Source: Escherichia phage Mt1B1_P17
Reading direction: 5' to 3' (one strand)
Sequence record: NC_052662.1
DNA: 64,000 nt
Positions 1-50,318 of the stretch are shown one piece after another. The notes beneath the pieces were generated by a model that was not told the DNA's origin, made no database searches, and saw only the letters and a list, made by a program, of their open reading frames with translations. Each line of letters starts with the position of its first letter. The first letter of the stretch is position 1. The position numbers were made by a program, and so were the translations under genes.

Positions 1-51
1 AACGCGAATTTTCGGGCCGTCAGGTCCACGCAGCGACAATTCCCAAATATC

Positions 52-255
52 ATGCGAATGAGAATAATTATCATTCGTATTCAATGACTTATGCAAGGCT
101 CATGCCAACGTAGCGACAAGGTGGGCCACTTGATTATAAATCACACAAACACTTATTTATCAATAGGTTGGCAACTTCATCATATGACGGAACAATGTCA
201 ACTAATCCCGCTCATGACAAGCAGACTATTATTCATATGAGAATGATTATTATTT
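52..255. repeat. two Fur-box-like imperfect palindromes (ATGCGAATGAGAATAATTATCATTCGT at 52..77; ATGAGAATGATTATTATTT at 237..255) in AT-rich non-coding DNA
   Basis: Read directly; near match to the 7-1-7 Fur-box pattern TGATAATnATTATCA; same motif family recurs at 13293..13407. Confidence 0.4.
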
Positions 256-564
256 AAACGTTTATTAACATAAAAACCAGAATAAATCAAGAATTTTCTG
301 ATTTTATTTACGTTTAAGAGAAGATGCTCAACATATCGCTACGCGATAGTATTCGCCCCCAAAAGTATTGACTTTTATTCTATTATGTGCACACTATGCA
401 ACCTGTCGCTATTCGCTCATGTTGCTACGTGCAATTATTCATCTTGCTAATGATTTCATATTGTAATTATTACAATGATTATTGTTATTGCGCTAATGTT
501 ATGATCTTGGTAATTACATATAATGCTAATAATAAGCCAGCGCAATAAGTGTAAGCGTCATTAC

Positions 565-583
565 GCTTGCAATTATTGCAAGC
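565..583. repeat. perfect palindrome GCTTGCAAT-T-ATTGCAAGC
   Basis: 9-bp arms read directly; adjacent second inverted repeat TAAGCGT/ACGCTTA at 552..568. Confidence 0.5.
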
Positions 584-1200
584 TACGCAGTAACAAGAAA
601 TAACCATCACCGATGGTTATGATTGTTGGGGTGTAGTTGGCTTATTATTAGCTCGCTATGTGTCCGGCATAGCGTGCTAATGATGATCCTGGGAATGATT
701 CGTTTTGTAATGATTTCATTCAGTCACTATTATGGCAATAGTTATTATTTTAATGGTTTCGTTTGTTATTGTTCGTTAGTTGGTTGTTTTGTCGTGTTAT
801 CGTTATCTTGCTTAGTATTCATCATGGTTTGATTGTTTCTTGTTATCAATCATCTTGCTATTATTCCTTTTATTATGATTAGTTTGCTTATTGTTTTAGG
901 TTGTTGGTTAGTTAGTTGTTGCGAACTGTTATCAACATTATAGTTATGCGCTTATATTGCATATATAATCATGTATAGATGATAATGGTTATCATTGCAC
1001 TAGAAAGGAGGTAAAAGGGTGTTTTTGATGGTTTGTTGTTGGTTGTTGATCGATTTTAACCGCTATAAATGGCTCTCTAACAGCCTGTTACCCTGGGAGG
1101 TATGGTTATTCGTTTAATGGTTGATTAGCTCGATACCGCGATTTATTCAATTTTGTTCTGTGTCGGTTTTTCATAGGCGAAAGCTATCAACATTGTTCGG

Positions 1201-1228
1201 GCAAAAAGAAAGGGCGCTTGGTGCGCCC
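1201..1228 (-). terminator. intrinsic terminator hairpin GGGCGC-TTGGT-GCGCCC (copy 1 of 3)
   Basis: Stem-loop with T-rich flanks just downstream of the stop of CDS 1245..1664; identical hairpin at 1776..1794 and 7207..7225. Confidence 0.5.
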
Positions 1229-1244
1229 CTTGTTTTGTTGTCAA

Positions 1245-12304: not shown

Positions 12305-12502
12305 TTATTCTATCCCTGCAATTTGATTAACGCGCTTGCATTTTGTAGCGTGCTGGTCTTCTGTAATGACTCCCATTTCTAACAGGGAATCAATGAAAGA
12401 TAAAACCGTTTCATGATCATCCTGGGGATGACTGAACTCAGTAAAACCGTTTACTATTACGTTGATTTGTCCAGCTTTCGCCACAATATGCAATGTTGCC
12501 AT
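12305..12502 (-). CDS. hypothetical early protein (65 aa)
   Basis: ORF; RBS; TTGACG-N17-TAGTAT promoter about 150 nt upstream. Confidence 0.4.
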   Translation of the reverse strand: MATLHIVAKAGQINVIVNGFTEFSHPQDDHETVLSFIDSLLEMGVITEDQHATKCKRVNQIAGIE

Positions 12503-12775
12503 GATCTTAACTCCAGGTGATGAATGATGTTTTTTGTTGGTGGACGGTGGATTATGGAGATCCTCACCTTTGCCCGTCCTGCATTGCGCCCTCCTGTTGT
12601 TTATTGTCGTTGTGCCGCGCCCCCCTCGACAAGATGAATACTACGCTACCAGGTGAGGAACGTCAACCACTTTTTCAATCTTTTTTATTTTCTTTTTGCT
12701 TGCTATGTATAAAGGAAAGGGCTATTATCTTTCTACCGCGCCAACCAGGGCGCACAACAAAGAAAGGGCGACACC

Positions 12776-13042
12776 ATGACAAATACTACATTACACCTTA
12801 TGCACTCATTGGGCTGGCAAGGCGGAACGGTGCACCAGGTAGCAAGCGCAACGGGCTTAAAGGTTGAAACAGTTCTCAACCTGGGCGATCATAAGGTGGA
12901 AGAGATAGATCATTTTGATACGTTCGCAAATGGTTATCTATGGGCTTGCAGTGGCGGCGGGGAAAGCAAGATACCACCAGGGGCGCGGGGCGATATGTAT
13001 TTTTGGTTAGGTGTCCTATCCTGGCAAGAAAACAAAAAATAA
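12776..13042 (+). CDS. hypothetical protein (88 aa), plus strand inside a minus-strand block
   Basis: ORF with weak RBS; GC-rich surroundings; uncertain. Confidence 0.3.
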   Translation: MTNTTLHLMHSLGWQGGTVHQVASATGLKVETVLNLGDHKVEEIDHFDTFANGYLWACSGGGESKIPPGARGDMYFWLGVLSWQENKK

Positions 13043-13044
13043 TC

Positions 13045-13073
13045 TTGACAAGCCCAGGGATCGGGCTTATACT
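13045..13073 (+). promoter_or_regulatory. near-consensus sigma70 promoter TTGACA-N17-TATACT with no downstream ORF
   Basis: -35 at 13045..13050, -10 at 13068..13073; followed by about 200 nt of GC-rich untranslated sequence. Confidence 0.5.
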
Positions 13074-13292
13074 GTTTTACATACAGAAGAGGAAGCGCCA
13101 CCCCACGGCGTAAAGGCGGGGCTAACATACCAGGGGGCACTGGTTGGAAGGTTGATCGCCGGTAGGCTGGGCGCTATATATTTGTAAAGAAATGTAAAGA
13201 TAAAATAATCACTTGCTTTCCTGGCTGGATCTGTTATTCTTATTACATGGCGAGGGGACACGGGAGCGCGAGACAAACACCGCCCCTGCGCG

Positions 13293-13407
13293 TCATTCTC
13301 TAAATGAGAATGATTATCATTTACTTTATTAAATAAGAATCAATCTCATTTATAAACTTAAATGCGAATCATTATCATTTGCATTTCCACATGAGAACTC
13401 TTCTCAT
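13293..13407. promoter_or_regulatory. cluster of four Fur-box-like imperfect palindromes
   Basis: ATGAGAATGATTATCATT (13304..13321), AGAATCAATCTCATT (13335..13350), ATGCGAATCATTATCATTTGCAT (13362..13384), ATGAGAA-CTC-TTCTCAT (13391..13407); read directly. Confidence 0.45.
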
Positions 13408-13427
13408 TCCCACCTGCATAAATTTTT

Positions 13428-13606
13428 GTAAACTTTAAATTTTGGTTTTGTACTTTCATTTTTGTAAAAGCAAAAAAACTTTAAATACTGTGGGCGCGCA
13501 AAATTTTTAAAATTTTCCTTGACTTTTGAGTTTTGTTTTGTATCTAACATTTTAAGATAATTTTCCTAAACTTTAAATTTTGGTTTTCAACTTTCACTTT
13601 TGTAAA
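13428..13606. repeat. two about 40-bp direct repeats (AAACTTTAAATTTTGGTTTTG/CAACTTTCA...TTTTGTAAA) in AT-rich intergenic DNA
   Basis: Copies at 13428..13468 and 13566..13606; extra AAACTTTAAAT-type and TTTGAGAT motifs nearby. Confidence 0.5.
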
Positions 13607-13857
13607 TTCTTAAAAAGTTTAAATAATTTGAGGAATTTTTGAGATAATAGGTAGTGGGAATTTGAGATAACCTTTAATCTTGTTGGTAAACCTTCAGGAA
13701 CCCACCTAGATCAAATCTTAGCAATGCAAACTGAAAAAGATAAGTGTTCGTATAGGACAAAATAATAGGCTCTCTACGGTGCTGTAGGAGCCTTATTTCT
13801 GTGCTACAAAGTGACGCCTTTGTTCTAAAAATGAAAAAAGTTAAAATATCACAAATA

Positions 13858-14391
13858 TCATCTTTGCGGTATTTTGTCTGGGAAAAGTATTTCTATCAGT
13901 TTGTTATGATATTTACCTAAAAGATTCTGTCCTTTCCAGGTGGCAGGGTTTAGCACCCCTGGTTCATACATCCCCATTCCAATTCCGTATACCTTATCGT
14001 AAGGACTTGCTTCAACAAATGTTTTGTATTGATATAGACGTAAATCGGCATACAAGTCTGGATTCTGTACATACTTCAAGCATAAACCTCGCATAACAAT
14101 ACGCTCACGATTCTCTTCCCATATTTTGTTATCGAAACCTGCTACTGCCCTACCCATACGTTTGTAATAAGCTTGTATCTTCTCATCTTCTCGTTTTAAG
14201 CTATGAGTCAGAATAGCTTGTGCGTTGTTGTGATCGTTAAAGAGCAAAGCTTTACGCCACATCATATATTGTTCTACACAGTTAAATGTTTCATTGTAAC
14301 CTGGTTCGGTTTCTGTAAAGGGTGCAATATACCAATTACTAAACACATCTTTATGTGAAAAGAAGAATACATATTCATCAGTTATTCTCAT
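13858..14391 (-). CDS. NADAR / YbiA-like (DUF1768-type) domain protein
   Basis: Motifs FFF...FSNWY, ...MMWRKALLFND, GRAVAGFD, LVEASPYD..YGIG match the NADAR family pattern from memory; not confirmed by search. Confidence 0.55.
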   Translation of the reverse strand: MRITDEYVFFFSHKDVFSNWYIAPFTETEPGYNETFNCVEQYMMWRKALLFNDHNNAQAILTHSLKREDEKIQAYYKRMGRAVAGFDNKIWEENRERIVMRGLCLKYVQNPDLYADLRLYQYKTFVEASPYDKVYGIGMGMYEPGVLNPATWKGQNLLGKYHNKLIEILFPDKIPQR

Positions 14392-42610: not shown

Positions 42611-42855
42611 TCGACGAGCTTGCCTCTCAAGTCATAGAAAATTATTGGCGCGAGAGAGAAGCTTTCATTATGCGCAGTCTCAAAGAGTATTTCATTGGGA
42701 CTGTGCGAATGGAAGATATTGTAAGTAGAGTGGAGATTCATGTATGGCCCGATTATGAAGAATGGGTTGACAAAGAAAATGAAAATGCTATAATTCTTCG
42801 TATATACAAACCGGAGATAACATTAGGAGGAAGAAGTGTTAAACTTCGAAATTGA
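42607..42855 (+). CDS. hypothetical protein (82 aa)
   Basis: ORF with overlapping start/stop. Confidence 0.4.
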   Translation: MIDELASQVIENYWREREAFIMRSLKEYFIGTVRMEDIVSRVEIHVWPDYEEWVDKENENAIILRIYKPEITLGGRSVKLRN

Positions 42856-50289: not shown

Positions 50290-50318
50290 TTGACAACTTT
50301 ACGGCAGAGACTTATACT
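50290..50318 (+). promoter_or_regulatory. consensus sigma70 promoter TTGACA-N17-TATACT
   Basis: -35 at 50290..50295, -10 at 50313..50318; drives CDS 50352..50783. Confidence 0.6.

Follow-up and report, generated by a model that had tools for sequence, protein, structure and literature searches.

What is transcribed from a consensus promoter that has no evident gene behind it? This question is raised by positions 13045-13290 of a 64,000-nucleotide (nt) stretch of DNA from Escherichia phage Mt1B1_P17 (sequence record NC_052662.1), the whole of which was analyzed and is called the window below. An earlier sequence-only reading had proposed that an orphan promoter at this site drives a structured non-coding RNA or a leader. 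Comparison with homologous loci supported this proposal through a conserved promoter, the pattern of insertions and deletions (indels), the covariation of a hairpin and two alleles of a proposed pseudoknot. We conclude that the plus strand probably carries a real non-coding RNA gene, which we call RNA A. The window represents a phAPEC8-like Phapecoctavirus (Stephanstirmvirinae), and the 1.5 kilobases (kb) around the site are 93-98% identical to phAPEC8-like Escherichia phages. The site lies within a gap of ~1.25 kb that separates two minus-strand gene blocks. The predicted elements of the promoter (P1) and of RNA A are as follows.

13045-13073, plus strand: promoter P1 with -35 hexamer TTGACA (13045-13050), 17-nt spacer and -10 hexamer TATACT (13068-13073); score 11/12, predicted start ~13079-13081
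13050-13068, no strand assigned: GC-rich hairpin AAGCCC-AGGGATC-GGGCTT in the P1 spacer, terminator-like in a terminator scan
13080-13095, plus strand: purine-rich 5' tail of RNA A, CAUACAGAAGAGGAAG, in which ACAG.AG..GA is nearly invariant in 34 sequences
13096-13099 with 13107-13110, plus strand: stem S1, CGCC with GGCG, predicted by RNAalifold and almost invariant
13101-13104 with 13118-13121, plus strand: stem S2, CCCC with GGGG, proposed from the type-2 alleles
13111-13117, plus strand: A-rich connecting loop UAAAGGC of the proposed H-type pseudoknot (13096-13121)
13126-13146, plus strand: variable hairpin CA(U)ACCAG-GGGGCA-CUGGUUG, covarying in 34 sequences
13147-13165, plus strand: conserved 3' segment of RNA A, GAAGGUUGAUCGCCGGUAG, common to both allelic types

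Homologous loci were collected from annotated genomes, IMG/VR and metagenomes, yielding 39 distinct loci from Stephanstirmvirinae and Vequintavirinae. As criterion for a promoter we used a sigma-70 score of at least 9/12, which is reached by ~8% of random 63-nt windows. On the plus strand, such a promoter with its predicted start in the same 15-nt bin was found in 39/39 distinct loci. It ends 20-28 nt before a conserved CCCCAC in 30/30 distinct upstream variants (24-28 nt in 29/30). The hexamers differ among loci (TTGACA, TTGCAA, TTGCGA or TTGACG with TATACT, TATATT, TATAGT, TATAAT or CATAAT) and the spacer is the most divergent part of P1. That the promoter is kept in place despite this divergent spacer is our main reason for considering it functional and the plus strand transcribed. 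No minus-strand promoter was conserved among the 39 loci scanned. The comparison shows 13045-13073 to be a predicted host-type sigma-70 promoter at a fixed position before a non-coding element of ~90 nt. TTGACA-N17-TATACT is present on the plus strand with 11/12, as the sequence-only reading had it. The further claim of that reading, that no sigma-70 site of the window matches better, does not hold in a promoter scan: TTGACA-N16-TATAAT at 42767 scores 12/12, and twelve sites in total score 11/12, among them an identical TTGACA-N17-TATACT at 50290. The spacer hairpin is kept in most genera with differing sequence (e.g. ACCCAGC-GCAA-GCTGGGT or GCCCCA-GGGAA-TGGGGC; spacers of 17-18 nt) and is possibly a weak terminator for the plus-strand open reading frame (ORF) upstream.

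A sensitive search located the segment behind P1 in 310 phage records. Its identity is 70-77% in Mydovirus, Seunavirus, Certrevirus, Henunavirus and unclassified relatives, where it is mostly unannotated. Alignment shows conservation of this putative ~90-nt element (~13080-13165) across Stephanstirmvirinae and most Vequintavirinae genera. The alignment of one of two allelic types, type 1, comprised 34 distinct sequences, and ~30 consecutive positions of RNA A, GCCA-CCCCACGGCG-N-AAAGGCGGGGCUAAC, are invariant in them while adjacent genes have diverged to ~70% identity. The bases separating the -10 box from the 5' tail are variable. At the other end, the 3' segment AUCGCCGGUAG is found in type 1 and type 2 alike.

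The absence of a convincing ORF downstream of the promoter, noted earlier from the sequence, was borne out by the comparison. ORFs of 57-69 amino acids (aa) occur in several frames of the segment, and none matches a PHROG or Pfam family. The loop of the variable hairpin measures 4-10 nt across loci, with a G-run of 4, 5, 6 or 7 among near-identical phages. Since these loop indels are not multiples of three, no reading frame is kept on either strand. Further, the ORF annotated as gp009 of phAPEC8 (minus strand; locus L001, 3306-3647) is broken into two frames in this window. A coding frame conserved among homologues, which would have spoken against an RNA, was not found, and the frames annotated in different records are inconsistent with each other.

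Folding with covariation from homologues, proposed as a check in the sequence-only reading, yielded a clear result for the hairpin at 13126-13146. Compensatory changes are found at four of its pairs (A:U to G:C in 12/34 sequences; also C:G to G:C, and A:U to U:A or C:G). Of the alignment cells, 93% are paired, compared with 20-46% for slid partners, and the covariation exceeds that of 500/500 shuffles (score reached by 0/500) and of every slid control. Tolerated variation in RNA A is apparently confined to hairpin loops and compensated pairs. RNAalifold also predicts S1 and a long-range helix, GGCGG:UCGCC. As both are almost invariant, they allow no covariation test. The 3' segment 13147-13165 could pair with GGCGG (13115-13119) or with the 3' strand of S1. 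The long-range helix contains an invariant G:U pair (13119:13156), and three sequences carry a C-to-U change at the position equivalent to 13160; pairing is then possible on the plus strand only.

Using a covariance model built from type-1 sequences, we detected divergent copies of RNA A at 22-35 bits, referred to as type 2. These are carried by Henunavirus and Klebsiella phage FKP3 and as second copies by the phages cardinal and Ro1. BLAST places type 2 in ~16 records, and a 15-mer scan of IMG/VR for type-2 alleles returned mostly chance matches. Type 1 reads CGCC-A-CCCC-AC-GGCG-NAAAGGC-GGGG and type 2 reads CGCC-UA-CCAA-C-GGCG-NUAAAC-UUGG. Between types, a change in the loop of the first hairpin is thus accompanied by one in a segment lying 6-7 nt further downstream, with CCCC:GGGG in 34/34 type-1 and CCAA:UUGG in 7/7 type-2 sequences at the same relative position. 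An H-type pseudoknot whose connecting loop is A-rich predicts just such a joint change, and we consider this structure supported, although not proven, for RNA A. The case for the long-range helix is weakened by type 2, in which its 5' strand is missing.

The organization of the second copies points to a mobile unit. In cardinal (Justusliebigvirus) and Ro1 (Mydovirus), a plus-strand gene for a 197-aa HNH endonuclease (phrog_953, E = 2e-81) with its own ribosome-binding site is inserted directly after ...GAUCGCYGGUA, just after the equivalent of position 13164. The insertion is present in two subfamilies (cardinal, locus L029, 801-1394; Ro1, locus L014). On the 3' side of the endonuclease gene, a second promoter built like P1 (TTGACA, spacer hairpin, CATAAT) is followed by a type-2 RNA A that rejoins the common 3' segment. 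In Pectobacterium phage P7_Pc (locus L133, ~1080-1160), just a decayed 3' end of the endonuclease gene lies between a type-1 and a type-2 copy. As the endonuclease brings a promoter and a type-2 copy with it, promoter and RNA appear to travel as a gene-like cassette. The conserved core of RNA A is the predicted homing target, and the endonuclease sits where transcripts from P1 would express its gene.

Family searches assigned RNA A to none of the classes covered. The covariance-model search suggested earlier was run against Rfam 15 and matched no RNA family in the whole window at the gathering threshold. At E values of up to 10, the region 12500-13900 gave chance matches to eukaryotic small nucleolar RNA and microRNA models only, none of them over 13080-13294; two weak microRNA-model matches start at 13295-13300 and run into the palindromes described below. 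The remark that the segment could not be folded into a transfer RNA (tRNA) cloverleaf agrees with ARAGORN, which found no tRNA or transfer-messenger RNA, either in the window or at four loci homologous to it. The tRNA-Ile and tRNA-Met annotated in OY978796.1 (locus L003, 2616-2769) were likewise not reproduced by ARAGORN. A host origin was addressed with BLAST against 5,426 E. coli genomes, which gave no long match (short matches are not detectable in this way). Outside the phage group no homologues were found: genomes of 185,579 species gave three chance matches and one phage contig, and a scan of metagenomes yielded two short contigs with chance matches besides contigs from this phage group. 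As a check for mimicry of host RNAs, such as by an RNA anti-CRISPR, RNA A was aligned locally with repeats of type I-E and I-F clustered regularly interspaced short palindromic repeats (CRISPR), the 3' end of 16S RNA and 4.5S RNA; p values were at least 0.14. The conserved unpaired stretches AUCGCCGGUAG and GAGACAAACACC are possible seeds for target pairing. In the literature searched, there was no description of RNA A or its transcript and no explanation of the ~1-kb block in which it stands.

RNA A is the predicted first element of this conserved gene-free block, which continues with a second promoter (P2), a second unit (unit B), four palindromes and AT-rich repeats.

13183-13200, plus strand: direct repeat TGTAAAGA-AA-TGTAAAGA with a period of 10 base pairs (bp), between RNA A and P2, present in nearly all loci (N2 between the copies)
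13213-13240, plus strand: candidate promoter P2, TTGCTT, 16-nt spacer, TATTCT; weak here (7/12)
13245-13300, plus strand: conserved unit B, a possible second small RNA, with the motif GAGACAAACACC at 13270-13281
13303-13408, no strand assigned: four 19-bp palindromes of consensus AATGAGAATGATTCTCATT, starting at 13303, 13332, 13361 and 13390, exactly 29 bp apart
13421-13630, no strand assigned: AT-rich DNA (18-31% GC) with a 72-nt direct repeat (13421-13492 / 13559-13630) and a related 29-nt repeat

The single segment of ~245 nt that had been proposed holds, on comparison, two separate conserved units. Unit A, i.e. RNA A, is well supported, and unit B is weak here in both structure and promoter. 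Equivalents of P2 with at least 9/12 were found in up to 27/39 loci (9, 8 and 10 in three adjacent 15-nt start bins), an example being TTGCAA-N17-TATATT in Mydovirus. Unit B contains a conserved GAGACAAWCACC and has a single-sequence folding z of -3.5, and RNAalifold returned no consensus structure for it. A possible closing helix, AUGGCG (13247-13252) with CGUCAU (13291-13296), is 91% paired, which is not above shuffles. At 13247, Mydovirus and Certrevirus have ATA in place of ATG, and the frame shifts by 1 nt between phages, so that unit B is non-coding as well. In rV5-like phages (Vequintavirus), RNA A is absent and two B-like units stand in tandem. The rV5-like JLBYU08 (locus L028, 1380-1640), for instance, has two tandem GGGAGACAAYCACCGGG units and then the palindrome, and a TTGCTT...TACTATAAT promoter precedes the second unit. 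At its 5' end (13247-13258, UGGCGAGGGGA), unit B of the window is complementary at 10/11 positions to the type I-E CRISPR repeat of E. coli, with an uncorrected p of 0.027 among 16 comparisons, which is not significant. The direct repeat at 13183-13200 reads TTTACA twice on the other strand, reminiscent of response-regulator sites.

The high GC content noted for the segment stands in comparison with the window mean (0.39) and with the DNA to its right (0.18-0.31 at 13300-13650): values are 0.53-0.56 at 13050-13200 and ~0.50 at 13200-13300. It does not stand in comparison with the left flank (12750-13050), which with 0.43-0.55 is as GC-rich as the segment. Nor is it continuous, as GC drops to 0.38 at 13150-13249 and two GC-rich blocks remain, 13090-13175 and 13247-13296.

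The palindrome motif, its offset and the 29-bp spacing are repeated in other genera. Compared with the Fur-box consensus GATAATGATAATCATTATC, the best palindromes match at 16/19 and 15/19 positions, and several other AT-rich sites of the window at 14/19; the resemblance to Fur boxes is a lead only. A second gene-free, AT-rich stretch of the window (1-1240) contains many short ATTATT/TTGCTAATGAT-like repeats and copies of the 19-bp palindrome at 57, 236 and 978.

We regard it as rather likely that these observations are best explained by a structured RNA that acts in trans and is recognized by a conserved partner. Host RNA polymerase would transcribe the plus strand from ~13080, probably early in infection. 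The product, RNA A, would consist of the purine-rich 5' tail, the H-type pseudoknot, the variable-loop hairpin and the conserved 3' segment AUCGCCGGUAG. It would act as a folded molecule recognized by a conserved protein or RNA partner, perhaps as decoy for, or regulator of, a factor of the host or the phage; simple antisense action is less likely. P2, unit B, the palindromes and the AT-rich repeats would probably serve to control these transcripts or would make use of them. The ~30 invariant nt, together with variation limited to loops and compensated pairs, make a trans-acting folded RNA the most likely form of the gene.

Several results weigh against this explanation. Most paired columns of RNA A never vary, and statistical support is available for the hairpin only. 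The pseudoknot rests on a single allele switch, and under loose criteria such complementarity arose by shuffling in 13% of type-1 and 28% of type-2 trials, which is why we call it no more than supported. The consensus fold of the minus strand is close in energy to that of the plus strand (-16.5 vs -17.4 kcal/mol, RNAalifold). Single-sequence folding z values are modest on both strands (-2.0 on plus, -1.4 on minus). As folding energy does not discriminate between strands, the assignment of the strand rests on the promoters, the orientation of the endonuclease gene and the G:U pairs. Within the 64-kb window, RNAduplex found no targets above shuffled seeds. After RNA A, the terminator scan detected no GC stem plus U-run, the Rho-independent terminator that an Hfq-type trans-acting small RNA would have, its terminator-like sites being limited to the P1 spacer hairpin and the AT-rich palindrome 13292-13314. 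RNA A may extend into unit B. Finally, an array of repeated sites beside an AT-rich region, as found here, fits an origin of replication equally well.

Such an origin is the main rival explanation, although we consider it unlikely. P1 and P2 would then make priming or activating transcripts, the G-rich plus-strand RNA would form an R-loop, the palindromes would be initiator iterons and the AT-rich repeats an unwinding element. The exact 29-bp period of four palindromes conserved in other genera, followed immediately 3' by DNA of 18-31% GC with 72-nt direct repeats, is what this arrangement predicts. GC skew is positive over 12850-13250, so that the RNA would be G-rich, and the equivalent region of Vequintavirinae contains GATC clusters and A6T6 tracts. 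Further, in the rV5 genome paper (PMC3606486) such a region is marked as a 'non-coding' box, and its authors were unable to locate the origin. Against this rival, both the lowest cumulative GC skew and the switch in gene orientation are found near 20 kb and not here, and DnaA boxes are missing here, with scattered one-mismatch sites in relatives only. Further copies of the palindrome lie at 57, 236 and 978, in the second gene-free region. A simple primer would need neither 30 invariant nt nor a pseudoknot and a covarying hairpin.

An improbable alternative is that RNA A is a cis-acting leader which modifies the transcribing polymerase or the downstream message, by put-like antitermination or as a riboswitch-like 5' untranslated region. 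The element does begin at the start of transcription directly behind a strong promoter, the alternative pairings of GGCG with either CGCC copy would permit a switch, and in cardinal and Ro1 the endonuclease ORF with a good ribosome-binding site follows directly. In the window and most relatives, however, there is no plus-strand ORF for ~700 nt up to a terminator at 13766-13792 (none of at least 40 aa from 13187 onwards; only endonuclease-carrying phages have one), genes beyond this terminator lie on the opposite strand, and no riboswitch or leader family matched. Still less probable is a functional RNA on the minus strand or conservation at the level of DNA, e.g. as a protein-binding or packaging site. 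The minus-strand consensus fold is of similar energy and includes a CCCCGC:GUGGGG helix whose G:U pairs are A.C mismatches on the plus strand, and the homing endonuclease demonstrates recognition of the sequence as DNA. Against a minus-strand RNA, no promoter is conserved there in 39 loci while the plus-strand promoter is universal, and the G:U pair 13119:13156 and the three C-to-U changes at the equivalent of 13160 pair on the plus strand only; compensatory changes in the hairpin favor a single-stranded fold over recognition of a duplex. A small protein encoded across the segment, as annotated in some records (e.g. phAPEC8 gp009 on the minus strand), is effectively refuted. Overlapping ORFs of 57-69 aa exist and several GenBank records annotate hypothetical proteins, but single-G differences and the 4-10 nt range of the loop break every frame, the phAPEC8 ORF is split into two frames here without PHROG or Pfam match, and the ATG at 13247 is ATA in Mydovirus/Certrevirus with 1-nt frame shifts.

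With a trans-acting RNA as the favored explanation, RNA A can be compared with known systems. T4 species 1 and 2 are small stable RNAs of a virulent phage that have no known role. These RNAs (RNA C/RNA D), OOP and PreS of lambda, sar of P22 and c4 of P1 are, as predicted for RNA A, short non-coding RNAs of conserved structure and without an ORF, which host polymerase makes from a phage promoter. RNA A differs from them in having no sequence or Rfam similarity, in not being antisense to a neighbor and in lacking an evident intrinsic terminator. It is a putative new family among elements of a familiar kind, with no match in the RNA libraries searched. With regard to topology, the T4 gene 32 leader and the preQ1-I riboswitch agree with the proposed pseudoknot of RNA A: two 4-bp stems with a loop of 1-2 nt between them, and a connecting loop rich in A, close to the 5' end of the transcript. 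Unlike these pseudoknots, the one in RNA A is proposed from comparison, is followed by no regulated ORF and gave no Rfam preQ1 match at E values of up to 10.

Origins that combine promoters and RNA or iterons are T4 oriE with its RNA, the primary origin of T7 (two promoters, AT-rich DNA), ColE1 with RNA II and the iterons of lambda ori. T4 oriE, the T7 primary origin and lambda ori resemble the locus in having host-type promoters next to an array of ~19-bp repeats and AT-rich, gene-free DNA. The locus is unlike them in that skew and gene orientation do not switch, the RNA is over-constrained for a primer and the palindromes are also found elsewhere. Fur-regulated loci are a further comparison: the palindromes match at 15-16/19 positions, resemble the Fur site of aerobactin, and keep the same motif in phages whose enterobacterial hosts differ, which would fit a host factor. 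In contrast to Fur boxes they are discrete sites 29 bp apart, stand downstream of the promoters instead of overlapping them, and carry G for T in each half-site; the likeness is one of sequence match only.

Precedent for a protein-binding decoy is provided by the rV5-like phage PhiTE, whose pseudo-ToxI RNA is a pseudoknot that acts by mimicry against a host defence protein (PMC3475682). Like RNA A, it is non-coding and belongs to this broad group of phages. ToxI-like repeats, however, are tandem 36-nt units at another locus, whereas RNA A is single-copy, has no tandem repeats and is unrelated in sequence. A link between RNA A and pseudo-ToxI of PhiTE was considered and rejected; Certrevirus CB7 has ToxI-like repeats beside a tRNA gene and no RNA A nearby. 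Such 36-nt repeats were seen in 80 phage records of many genera, and in CB7 (locus L050, 3001-3064) they are fused to a tRNA-like 3' part beside tRNA-Tyr. A bolder scenario, which we consider speculative and doubtful, would make RNA A an undescribed class of pseudoknotted phage RNA that is made at the onset of infection and binds and neutralizes, or redirects, a conserved factor of enterobacteria such as a defence nuclease, polymerase or ribosome-associated protein. The alleles would then be specificity variants swapped by the endonuclease cassette, and the Fur-like palindromes would tie output to iron status.

The phages concerned (rV5-, phAPEC8-, phi92- and PVP-SE1-like) are widely isolated and are candidates for therapy and biocontrol. 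RNA A is more conserved than the proteins around it and is a concrete candidate gene which allows corrected annotation of a block that is left blank or filled with spurious ORFs. Through it, early host takeover or the control of replication in these phages may become accessible to study, and the homing insertion site and the two alleles offer a natural genetic handle.

The gap around RNA A is delimited by the following features.

12666-12638: promoter TTGACG-N17-TAGTAT at the start of the left minus-strand block
12776-13042, plus strand: small upstream ORF of 88 aa (phrog_19316), ending 3 nt before P1; the sole credible ORF in the gap
~13766-13792: bidirectional terminator at the end of the right minus-strand block

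All genes past this terminator lie on the strand opposite to P1. Over the rest of the gap, public records are blank or show small ORFs in conflicting frames. Homologues of the 88-aa ORF in other phages are 44-76% identical, and unrelated small ORFs take the same position in other genera. A small plus-strand ORF is always found upstream of P1, its family differing by genus (88 aa here, ~60 aa in Seunavirus/Mydovirus, 69 aa in KP12). The 88-aa protein has a stretch resembling a helix-turn-helix, judged by eye only, and a single-sequence structure model was unusable, with a predicted local distance difference test score of 33. Right of the non-coding block, the nearest gene (13858-14391, minus strand) encodes a NADAR-domain protein (Pfam E = 1e-35), and Mydovirus has a nicotinamide phosphoribosyltransferase gene close by. 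In phAPEC8, the annotated 'PHIRE promoters' (GTAGGGCGGCAATGGTGCCG; locus L001, 439-458, 1455-1474, 2344-2363 and 2983-3002) lie just 3' of sigma-70 -10 boxes and can form stem-loops. They look like repeated 5' leader hairpins rather than promoters.

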